Positions 53,874 to 55,360 of a DNA stretch of 64,000 bases are shown here, in pieces. The stretch is from an uncultured Clostridium sp. Lineage in GTDB: Bacteria; Bacillota; Clostridia; TANB77; CAG-508. Location: the NCBI GenBank assembly GCA_946578345.1, contig CAMOBD010000001.1, positions 477 through 64,476 on the forward strand, given 5' to 3'. The number at the start of each line of letters is the position of its first letter. The stretch's first letter is position 1. A model generated the notes under the pieces. The model was not told the origin of the DNA, searched no databases, and saw only the letters and a list, made by a program, of their open reading frames with translations. Position numbers and translations under genes: made by a program.

Positions 53874-53908
53874 GAAAAATATTACAAAAATATTACAAAA
53901 ATATAATA
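53874..53908. repeat. Iteron-like AATATTACAAA direct repeats (about three units) upstream of the pilin-like gene cluster
   Basis: The same repeat set recurs at 55293-55326. Confidence 0.45.
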
Positions 53909-53991
53909 TTTTTGTTACAATAGTGAAAAAATGATAAAAATGTGGTATTATTATATTGCAAAATATAAAAAAATCATTTATAATAATATAA

Positions 53992-54366
53992 ATGGGGGAA
54001 ATTATGAGAAAAAAAACATTAATTATTATAGGTTTTATATTGTTAATTATATTTTCTTATACTACCAATACATATGCTACTACGATTGACCCTGACAAAT
54101 ATAAGCCAGGAGATATACAAAGTACTGAAGTTCAAGATGTAATACAAGCATCTTCTATTATTGTAGATGTAATAAGAACAGTTGGTATAATAGTTGCTGT
54201 AGTAGTTCTTCTAGTTTTAGGAATTAAGTATATGGTTGGAAGCGTAGAAGAAAGGGCAGAATACAAGAAAACAATGATACCATACTTAGTTGGAGCATTT
54301 TTGTTTTTTGGACTAAGTCAAATATTAGCTGTAATAATTGAAACAGCAAAAATATTGGAAAATTAG
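53992..54366 (+). CDS. Small T4SS-associated membrane protein, paralogue 1 (pilin/VirB2-like topology)
   Basis: Signal/TM segment plus a conserved C-terminal 'GIKYMVGS.EERAEYKKTMIPYLVGAFLFFG' shared by the three tandem paralogues. Confidence 0.4.
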   Translation: MGEIMRKKTLIIIGFILLIIFSYTTNTYATTIDPDKYKPGDIQSTEVQDVIQASSIIVDVIRTVGIIVAVVVLLVLGIKYMVGSVEERAEYKKTMIPYLVGAFLFFGLSQILAVIIETAKILEN

Positions 54367-54378
54367 GTGGTGTTAAAC

Positions 54379-54831
54379 ATGACATACAATAAAAAAATAA
54401 AGATTATTATATCTATAATTACAATTATTATAATACTTATAATAGAATCACCTATATCTTATATGATGTCAGACGTAGAAAGTACAGGAATAAAACAGCA
54501 AACTAGCATAGATGACATTGTTGGAGGAGCGGAGAAATTTGAGGAAGCTGGACAATCACTTGATAAGGATACTATAGCCGGAGGAATAAGTGTTGACGAT
54601 GGAGATATACAAAATGTTTCGAGCTTAGTATATAATACAATTTTTATTGTAGGAATTGTAATTGTAGTTGTAGTAGGGCTAGTTATAGGAATTCAATTTA
54701 TGACTGGAAGTGTAGAGCAAAAAGCAGAGGTTAAACAAACGTTGATTCCTTACGTTGTCGGATGTATAATTATATTTGGTGCATTTGCAATTTGGAGGAT
54801 AGTAGTAAATTTGTTAAATCAAACTCAATAA
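54379..54831 (+). CDS. Small T4SS-associated membrane protein, paralogue 2
   Basis: An AGGTGG RBS, and the conserved C-terminal 'GIQFMTGSVEQKAEVKQTLIPYVVGCIIIFGA'. Confidence 0.4.
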   Translation: MTYNKKIKIIISIITIIIILIIESPISYMMSDVESTGIKQQTSIDDIVGGAEKFEEAGQSLDKDTIAGGISVDDGDIQNVSSLVYNTIFIVGIVIVVVVGLVIGIQFMTGSVEQKAEVKQTLIPYVVGCIIIFGAFAIWRIVVNLLNQTQ

Positions 54832-54899
54832 TTTAGATTTTAAAATTATCCTAAAAAGGATATTCAATATATTAATAATATAGAATAGGAGGAAGACTT

Positions 54900-55292
54900 A
54901 TGAAAAAAACAGCAAAAATAGTAACACTTATATTACTAGTTATATCAGTAATGTTATTTTCAAGCACTATAGTTAATGCTACAGGAGCTACAGGAGCAGT
55001 ATCTAACGCAGGTTCAACAGTTGACGGACTATTTAATAAAGGAAACGCTGATACTGGAAACTTAGAAACTGTTGGCGCAAATATTGTAAGCATTATTACT
55101 ACTGTAGGAATTATAGTTGCTGTAATTGTATTACTTATATTAGGTATTAAATACATGATGGGAAGTGCTGCTGAAAAAGCAGAATACAAAAAAACTATGA
55201 TACCATATCTAATTGGTGCTGTATTAATATTTGGTGCATCAGCTATAGCTAAAGCTGTTATAGCAGCATCTCAAATGGTTACAGGAAGCTAA
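54900..55292 (+). CDS. Small T4SS-associated membrane protein, paralogue 3
   Basis: A GGAGGAAG RBS, and the conserved C-terminal 'GIKYMMGSAAEKAEYKKTMIPYLIGAVLIFGAS'. Confidence 0.4.
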   Translation: MKKTAKIVTLILLVISVMLFSSTIVNATGATGAVSNAGSTVDGLFNKGNADTGNLETVGANIVSIITTVGIIVAVIVLLILGIKYMMGSAAEKAEYKKTMIPYLIGAVLIFGASAIAKAVIAASQMVTGS

Positions 55293-55326
55293 AATATTAC
55301 AAAAATATTACAGAAATATTACAATT
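55293..55326. repeat. Second set of AATATTACA(A/G)A direct repeats, downstream of the pilin-like genes
   Basis: aaaatattacaaaaatattacagaaatattacaa. Confidence 0.45.
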
Positions 55327-55333
55327 ATATTAA

Positions 55334-55360
55334 AAGTGCATTTTTATGCACTTTTTTTTG
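55334..55360 (+). terminator. Rho-independent terminator after the pilin-like gene triplet
   Basis: agtgcat-tttt-atgcact followed by tttttttt. Confidence 0.55.

Follow-up and report, generated by a model that had tools for sequence, protein, structure and literature searches.

Paired TTACA arrays around three VirB2-like pilin genes of uncultured gut Clostridia are parts of predicted promoters and probably bind a host-encoded regulator

The stretch of DNA analysed here, hereafter the window, comprises 64,000 nt of contig CAMOBD010000001.1 from an uncultured Clostridium sp. (assembly GCA_946578345.1). It contains a type IV secretion system (T4SS) gene cluster in which three tandem genes for small pilin-like proteins (p1, p2 and p3) are bracketed by two arrays of short direct repeats built on the motif TTACA. 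What do these arrays do, and why do they stand on both sides of the pilin genes? A first-pass annotation had regarded them as iterons that might either mediate duplication or deletion of the enclosed genes or serve as a shared regulator-binding array. Our comparative data favour the second option: array 1 appears to be part of the predicted pilin promoter and array 2 part of the predicted promoter of the downstream prgI/virB4 operon, and the bracketing reflects this promoter layout. A sequence-specific regulator encoded by the host probably binds the lattice and controls the pilin and machinery operons together. All promoters, terminators and binding sites described below are predictions from sequence, and the coordinates of the features are collected in Table 1.

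Both arrays consist of four slots of 11 nt each. TTACA starts at 53882, 53893 and 53915 in array 1, on a single 11-nt lattice, and at 55297, 55308 and 55319 in array 2, the first unit of which begins one base past the TAA stop codon of p3. The same array is thus present before the first and after the third pilin gene, as had been annotated; the two are direct copies of ~45 nt with 84% identity that lie 1415 bp apart, exactly flank the three genes, and share the 11-nt units alone, without a longer common element. The sequence AATATTACARA occurs nine times in the window versus 0.74 expected, and none of 100 shuffled sequences reached nine. Pairs of the form TTACA-N6-TTACA were found on the + strand of the window in arrays 1 and 2 only and on the - strand at 36428-36444 and 38556-38572 only, and TTACA pairs at each of the other spacings gave 0-2 matches.

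Table 1. Predicted and annotated features of the pilin locus and the adjoining T4SS genes (window positions)
Feature	Position	Strand	Description
Terminator-like hairpin	53798-53843	+	20-bp stem, -27.9 kcal/mol, z = -7.7; 3' of the Spo0E-like gene
Array 1	53878-53921	+	four-slot 11-nt lattice: exact AATATTACAAA (53878-53888), exact AATATTACAAA (53889-53899), degenerate AATATAATATT (53900-53910), TTTGTTACAAT (53911-53921)
Pilin promoter P1	53923-53951	+	weak -35 GTGAAA, 17-nt spacer, extended -10 TG-g-TATTAT (TATTAT 53946-53951)
Pilin promoter P2	53956-53984	+	TTGCAA, 17-nt spacer, TATAAT; near consensus
Pilin-like paralogue 1 (p1)	54004-54366	+	120 aa; signal peptide, variable region, two hydrophobic helices
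Pilin-like paralogue 2 (p2)	54379-54831	+	150 aa; most divergent copy, longer variable region
Pilin-like paralogue 3 (p3)	54900-55292	+	130 aa; best conserved copy
Array 2	55293-55336	+	four-slot lattice: AATATTACAAA (55293-55303), AATATTACAGA (55304-55314), AATATTACAAT (55315-55325), TATATTAAAAG (55326-55336)
Pilin-operon intrinsic terminator	55332-55368	+	AAAAGTGCA-loop-TGCACTTTT, then T-run; between array 2 and the prgI core promoter
prgI-operon promoter	55369-55397	+	extended -10 TGATATAAT (55389-55397); -35 position TATCTT
PrgI/VirB3-like protein	55437-55784	+	PF12666, 29.6 bits; first gene of the machinery operon
VirB4 TraC-like N-terminal part	55774-57003	+	split VirB4
VirB4 ATPase	56957-58933	+	split VirB4; 47-nt overlap with the N-terminal open reading frame
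Fourth protein with pilin-like domain	59166-59891		
TrbL/VirB6-like protein	59983-61758		

The lattice was then sought in ~75 related species, which provided 75 loci for the array before prgI and 66 with a complete pilin block. In 1.12 Mb of DNA from 78 related species, the gene strand carries 121 TTACA-N6-TTACA pairs and the other strand 3; 83 of the pairs lie within 250 nt upstream of prgI and ~32 upstream of the first pilin gene. Other spacings gave no more than 10 pairs each, except for one excess at a 15-nt period, which lies inside virB4 and was rejected as a coding artefact. Two or more exact on-lattice units are present before prgI in 59 of the 75 species and before the first pilin gene in 30 of the 66, as compared with 2 of 1401 control windows. 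The conserved part of the unit is TTACA with the preceding A or G; the spacer is rich in A or in T, depending on the species, with 62-84% A at unit positions 6-9. The fourth slot of array 2, ATATTAAAA, is 84-96% conserved.

The distances between the arrays and the predicted promoters are also kept. Relative to the first base of the -10 hexamer of P1, the units of array 1 lie at -64, -53, (-42) and -31, and relative to the -10 element of P2 at -97, -86 and -64; the motif TGnTAnnnT begins 64-65 nt after the first unit at pilin P1 in 17 of the 26 array-bearing species, and we infer that P1 has promoter activity. The units of array 2 lie at -95, -84, -73 and (-62) from the -10 element of prgI, the corresponding positions across species being -96/-95, -85/-84, -74/-73 and (-63/-62). 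The prgI motif TGnTATAAT is perfect in 71 of the 75 species, and TTACA occupies the -35 position, 23 nt 5' of the -10 element, in 44 of the 75; most relatives differ in this respect from the window. Two rearranged loci separate promoters from gene ends. In L013, a fourth pilin gene shifts the stop codon ~95 nt from array 2, and the distance from the array to the prgI promoter is unchanged; in L017, an insertion sequence of the IS21 family has entered upstream of array 1, and the array and promoter are still attached to pilin 1. These geometries indicate that the arrays belong to the promoters and not to the gene ends, and the initial view of the arrays as brackets of a gene cassette was not borne out, because their distance is fixed to the downstream promoter.

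Predicted terminators delimit the two transcription units. The hairpin 3' of the Spo0E-like gene is predicted to insulate array 1 against upstream transcription. The annotated terminator after the second array was confirmed as an intrinsic terminator-like element with a GC-containing hairpin (55332-55355, followed by T8; -11 kcal/mol, z = -5.2) and a U-tract, and it is kept in relatives with the paired changes GTGCA..TGCAC to ATGCA..TGCAT. In the clade of the window, it separates array 2 from the prgI core promoter. We propose that both arrays are copies of one cis-regulatory module, a four-slot (A/G)TTACA lattice with a period of 11 bp (approximately one helical turn) and a single orientation. 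A regulator encoded elsewhere in the host genome would bind both arrays, probably as head-to-tail dimers, and this shared binding would subject the pilin subunits and the machine to the same signal. Their amounts would be uncoupled by the terminator nested in array 2: abundant pilin transcripts would end there, and transcription of the machinery operon would start anew, at a lower level, from its own extended -10 promoter.

The three genes between the arrays encode proteins that share the block GI(K/Q)(Y/F)M.GS..(E/Q)(R/K)AE(Y/V)K(K/Q)T(M/L)IPY(L/V).G and differ in their N-terminal halves. BLASTP comparison of p1 and p3 (44% identity, E = 1e-29), p2 and p3 (36%, 8e-22) and p1 and p2 (43% over 74 aa, 2e-11) confirmed the annotated tandem paralogy. 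At the curated Pfam cut-offs (26.6 bits for PF18895, T4SS_pilin; 27.9 bits for PF04956, TrbC/VirB2), p1 (34.0 and 31.5 bits, respectively) and p3 (36.3 and 43.9 bits) match both families. The p2 protein scored 26.3 bits for PF18895, 0.3 short of the cut-off, and 21.1 bits for PF04956; despite these sub-threshold scores, it is counted as pilin-like because it is homologous to p1 and p3. With the PrgI/VirB3-like and VirB4 genes (55437-55784 and 55774-58933) directly downstream, the three proteins are assigned to the VirB2/TrbC-type T4SS pilin-like proteins, in line with the T4SS component that had been annotated. In their hydropathy profiles, a hydrophobic signal segment at the N-terminus is followed by a hydrophilic stretch of variable sequence and by two long hydrophobic helices, the latter joined by a short charged loop (AEKAEYKK). 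As to the VirB2-like fold that the annotation had proposed to test, AlphaFold2 models contain a helical hairpin in both p3 (mean predicted local distance difference test score 73; helices 2-21, 53-87 and 90-128) and p2 (N-terminal helix, disordered residues 27-73, hairpin 74-109/112-149), but a Foldseek search of the p3 model against the PDB gave no significant match. In a PDB profile search with the pilin, TrwL matched weakly (E = 0.26). In total, 3307 homologues of p3 were found at E <= 0.001.

Exactly three pilin genes are present in 58 of the 66 loci with a complete pilin block; the remaining 8 contain one copy (two loci), two (one locus), four (four loci) or six (one locus). The best cross-species match was at the same position for p1 in 53, for p2 in 52 and for p3 in all 58 of these species, and paralogues within a genome share 31-42% identity. 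Because the three copies are retained in 58 of 66 species and are positional orthologues, the triplication is old and stable; the comparison indicates that it predates the radiation of the lineage and that the three pilins are distinct subunits, among which p3 is probably the major one. The N-terminal parts have diversified extensively, as had been suspected: averaged over 57 species, identity to the window is 28-32% for the N-terminal and 51-66% for the C-terminal parts of the pilins (42-52% for the whole proteins), versus 87.5% for the VirB4 ATPase. Such fast evolution of the exposed segments fits a surface location. In the four-pilin locus L013 (5807-6001 in locus coordinates), the extra last copy carries a terminator-like hairpin and an extended -10 promoter (TGTTATAAT) of its own, without a TTACA array.

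Occurrences of the array at other genes point to a module that is not specific to the T4SS and to a host-wide regulator. The two - strand pairs in the window lie upstream of the two paralogous genes for anaerobic ribonucleotide reductase, nrdD (36568-38451 and 38741-41047), and are inverted in orientation (TGTAAC-N5-TGTAAT). At least 120 loci with three ATTACA boxes spaced 11 nt apart were found in a metagenome scan. Among the matches listed are T4SS loci of this lineage (L103, L124 and L134), an nrdD gene of a related species, 80% identical to that of the window, with a three-unit inverted TGTAAT array at the same place (L150), and seven low-GC contigs from different species (L105, L107, L126, L132, L139, L175 and L182) in which the array precedes a gene for a ~540-aa protein with a PilN domain. 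In these seven contigs, the three ATTACA units are followed by an ATTAAA slot and a promoter of the form TTGACT-16/17-TAAAAT; the units lie at -64, -53 and -42, as at pilin P1. In L175, N-methyl pilin-like genes and a gene for a prepilin peptidase follow in the operon, which is therefore a type IV pilus operon. Other genes found 3' of arrays among the matches listed encode a pilin-like DUF285/leucine-rich repeat protein, a cohesin/dockerin protein, YabG, LemA and a thiolase. As a separate observation, the upstream regions of both nrdD genes of the window share the block TGTGACTT(A/T)TGCAACAGAAAAAA near the -35 position, which may be a CRP/FNR-type site.

The format of the lattice, namely direct repeats of 5-6 nt with an 11-bp period, in 2-4 boxes of which the last lies beside or replaces the -35 element, led us to propose, as the likeliest kind of protein, a response regulator of the OmpR/PhoB type, whose sites are direct repeats (5-7 nt, period 10-11 bp) near or overlapping the -35 element. 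This family assignment is tentative, and any single member of the family is a less likely candidate still. PhoP boxes of B. subtilis have the form TT(A/T/C)ACA at 11-bp spacing, and ATTACA agrees with them at five of six positions. The (G/A)TTAC part of the unit agrees at four of five positions with the SaeR site, GTTAAN6GTTAA (PMC5083920). The WalR box, TGTWAH-N5-TGTWAH (PMC9210968), is matched exactly on the - strand at 53881-53897, 55296-55312 and 55307-55323. Eight matches to this consensus lie in the window versus 1.63 expected, and the reverse strand of every exact unit pair (TGTAAT-N5-TGTAAT) fits it, the cognate regulator here being a putative one. WalR sites typically precede genes for cell-wall hydrolases or other cell-envelope functions; the T4SS cluster includes a large hydrolase gene, with no array directly in front of it. 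Unlike in the WalR, PhoP and SaeR regulons, the genes downstream are those of the T4SS, type IV pili and nrdD, and unlike at the other array promoters, the prgI array is placed three helical turns further upstream. Four other types of site were compared by consensus sequence and rejected: Spo0A boxes (TGTCGAA; 4/7 match and a 10-bp period), DnaA boxes, sigma-E and sigma-K promoter elements (misfit in spacing) and TnrA/GlnR sites (which require inverted repeats).

Several observations weigh against the regulator model. The third slot of array 1 and the TTACA at the prgI -35 position are degenerate in the window's own clade, and 16 of the 75 species have at most one exact unit before prgI. The array before prgI is located ~85-110 nt upstream of the putative transcription start, which is far for a direct activator, and a terminator lies in between; the promoters and transcript ends are themselves predicted. 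No OmpR-family regulator was detected in the 64-kb window by tblastn with an approximate WalR query; the array-binding protein is a postulated one. The GH25-LysM gene (48848-50104), the one cell-wall hydrolase gene checked in the window, has no WalR-type match. The type IV pilus contigs are not assignable to the lineage of the window, and, because the units carry phased A-tracts, intrinsic curvature could contribute.

Curvature may also be invoked on its own: phased A/T-tracts could act without a specific protein, as curved DNA or as an UP-like element that stimulates RNA polymerase directly. Each unit contains an A4-5 tract, the 11-bp period is near the helical repeat and positions 6-9 are A-rich, and at the plc promoter of C. 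perfringens, phased A-tracts on the upstream side act by such curvature or UP-like stimulation. However, the invariant part of the unit is TTACA with the preceding A or G, including a C that is not needed for bending, the spacer is T-rich rather than A-rich in many species, the orientation is strict at the T4SS and type IV pilus promoters (121 versus 3), and a 35-nt terminator separates the prgI array from its core promoter; we consider this explanation unlikely. An effect at the RNA level, with array 2 as an element in the 3' untranslated region of the pilin mRNA that governs stability or binds a protein together with the terminator hairpin, would agree with the start of array 2 one base past the stop codon and its transcription up to the terminator. 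This is very unlikely, given that array 1 is preceded by a strong terminator and followed by the predicted promoters, that L013 and many distant species have terminators 5' of array 2, that the nrdD arrays are oppositely oriented, and that the array RNA has no significant structure (z = -1.9) and an Rfam scan of 53300-55900 detected no RNA family.

Two further explanations treat the arrays as repeats in their own right. If they were substrates for recombination, the 1.4-kb block could be duplicated, deleted or excised and the pilin copy number would vary, as had originally been suggested; the arrangement of the direct copies exactly around the three genes and the 8 loci with deviating copy numbers are in accordance with this. 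The constancy of three positional orthologues in the other 58 species, the low identity of the paralogues within each genome, the array-less extra copy of L013 with its own terminator and promoter, the fixed distance of the arrays to promoters and not to gene ends, and the presence of the same array at the promoters of single-copy nrdD and of type IV pilus genes nevertheless largely refute this explanation, which we regard as highly improbable. The arrays might instead be a dispersed small repeat resembling miniature inverted-repeat transposable elements or repetitive extragenic palindromes and without function at this locus, a reading that the similar arrays at several unrelated loci in low-GC metagenome contigs could suggest. 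It is scarcely credible when the arrays have neither terminal inverted repeats nor target duplications, the copies have only the 11-nt units in common, and position and phase relative to the -10 boxes are kept over ~75 species. Control by a host-encoded regulator thus accounts best for the lattice and its promoter geometry.

The genomic context indicates that the cluster is chromosomal, vertically inherited and not recently mobile. Upstream of it are rpsU, two M16 peptidase genes and a Spo0E-like gene (53582-53782), and metagenome contigs with pilins of only 62-70% identity have the same gene order (M16, Spo0E-like, pilins, prgI, virB4). A scan of one genome per GTDB species yielded 80 loci with VirB4 82-95% identical, all of them from metagenome-assembled genomes of uncultured gut Clostridia (human, rabbit, mouse and ruminant samples) and two of them on complete chromosomes of 1.57 and 1.70 Mb. 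Averaged over 57 species (48 for M16), identity to the window is 72% for the M16 peptidase, 87.5% for the VirB4 ATPase, 64% for the VirB4 N-terminal part and 65% for PrgI, and the divergence of M16 correlates with that of VirB4 (Spearman 0.91, n = 45). Vertical inheritance follows from this conserved chromosomal site and from the co-divergence with the neighbouring housekeeping gene. The annotated mobile element with its own regulators is not supported by these data, nor by the occurrence of the array at nrdD and type IV pilus operons. In PLSDB plasmids, neither blastn with the DNA nor tblastn with the pilins gave a match, and VirB4 alone identified plasmid relatives, at no more than 43% identity.

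Additional features of this neighbourhood were observed. Most species of the lineage have a gene for a Spo0E-like aspartyl-phosphate phosphatase (66 aa) directly 5' of the pilin promoter. The IS21-family insertion, which encodes a transposase and IstB, is located between this gene and array 1 in L017, L018 and L026 (~2227-4396 in locus coordinates), which represent one species. In the more distant relatives L076, L078, L083, L085, L090 and L091, the neighbour of the cluster is a tRNA gene, which it adjoins at the 3' end, and not the M16 and Spo0E-like genes. Only one pilin gene is present in L085 and L091, and these two loci, like L078, lack a TTACA array before prgI. The tRNA-adjacent clusters may reflect an older integrative stage.

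The machinery genes correspond to an MPF_FATA-type apparatus, with a VirB4 ATPase, a VirB3/PrgI protein, a VirB6-like protein and a hydrolase, although the matches to TrbL_4 and Mbov_0396 are weak. The split of VirB4 is kept in all relatives and in the homologues on C. botulinum and C. beijerinckii plasmids. Beyond the window, the cluster continues with genes for a 1108-aa lysozyme/NlpC-P60 hydrolase, a 440-aa protein, a 691-aa DnaB_C-like ATPase, another 440-aa protein and S11 D-Ala-D-Ala carboxypeptidases, in this order; the 691-aa protein and both 440-aa proteins gave nothing useful when compared with PDB sequences. No relaxase, VirD4/TcpA-type coupling protein or integrase was recognised in Pfam, NCBIfam and PDB sequence searches of all open reading frames of the cluster up to the S11 genes, where distant or unlinked homologues are possible. 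Because neither a relaxase nor a coupling protein was recognised, the cluster is not classed as a conjugative element.

The closest analogue is the T4SS of Patescibacteria, which is chromosomal, mostly relaxase-less, related to monoderm conjugation systems and accompanied by tandem arrays of 2-11 divergent VirB2-like genes (PMC12102498); this paper was the only relevant one in a literature search on the lineage (TANB77, CAG-780 and UMGS names) and PF18895. It also cites the multi-copy virB2 genes of Bartonella and Anaplasma and states that the Gram-positive T4SS classes lack virB2 homologues. Both systems combine small signal-peptide pilins, with two hydrophobic helices and PF04956/PF18895 matches, in divergent tandem copies next to virB3/virB4, and in both a chromosomal T4SS has machinery related to monoderm MPF_FATA-type systems and no recognised relaxase. 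The present cluster differs in its host, Gram-positive gut Clostridia, in its fixed set of three orthologues versus a variable 2-11, in its single conserved site beside spo0E-like and M16 peptidase genes, and in its conserved promoter lattice. The plasmids C. botulinum pINGR16-02E1 and C. beijerinckii p1 and the pLS20-like Bacillus plasmids likewise have a pilin-like gene, a prgI-like gene and a split VirB4 (ATPase 43% identical). In contrast to the chromosomal and vertically inherited cluster described here, they have one pilin-like gene and no TTACA arrays, and the absence of arrays from the nearest plasmid homologues (C. botulinum and C. beijerinckii) means that the arrays are not ancestral to this type of T4SS. 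Resemblance to plasmid iterons, as in the name first given to the arrays, is confined to the tandem arrangement of short direct repeats: the units are 11 nt long versus ~17-22 nt, the arrays are chromosomal and tied to promoters, no rep gene, origin or AT-rich unwinding element is nearby, and the flanks are housekeeping genes with synteny kept across species.

VirB2-type pilins are considered a trait of diderm T4SSs; the Gram-positive gut lineage described here retains three of them, together with their VirB4 machine, at a fixed chromosomal site. The VirB4 ATPase is more conserved than the neighbouring housekeeping peptidase (87.5% versus 72%), and this conservation, the fixed site and the lack of a recognisable relaxase together suggest an important function that is probably not conjugation, in parallel with the essential T4SS of episymbiotic Patescibacteria. 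It is conceivable, although we advance it with reserve, that this small-genome (~1.6-1.7 Mb) lineage inherited a relaxase-less VirB4 apparatus with three fast-evolving VirB2-like subunits, co-opted it, as has been suggested for Patescibacteria, for a non-conjugative role (such as surface filament, adhesion, cell-cell contact or DNA uptake) and placed it in one TTACA-lattice regulon with type IV pili and anaerobic ribonucleotide reductase. With its defined geometry and its presence at the promoters of pilin, machinery, nrdD and type IV pilus genes, the lattice provides a handle for finding the regulator and regulon in organisms that have never been cultured.

The organisation of the region downstream of virB4 also varies. 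In most relatives, the gene after virB4 is a single open reading frame of 750-1000 aa in which a pilin-like domain is fused to a VirB6/TrbL-like domain. The same region of the window contains three open reading frames (58943-59164, 59166-59891 and 59983-61758) in three different frames, an arrangement that could be a split gene, a pseudogene or a case of programmed frameshifting and that recurs in independent samples (L003 and L100-L102).

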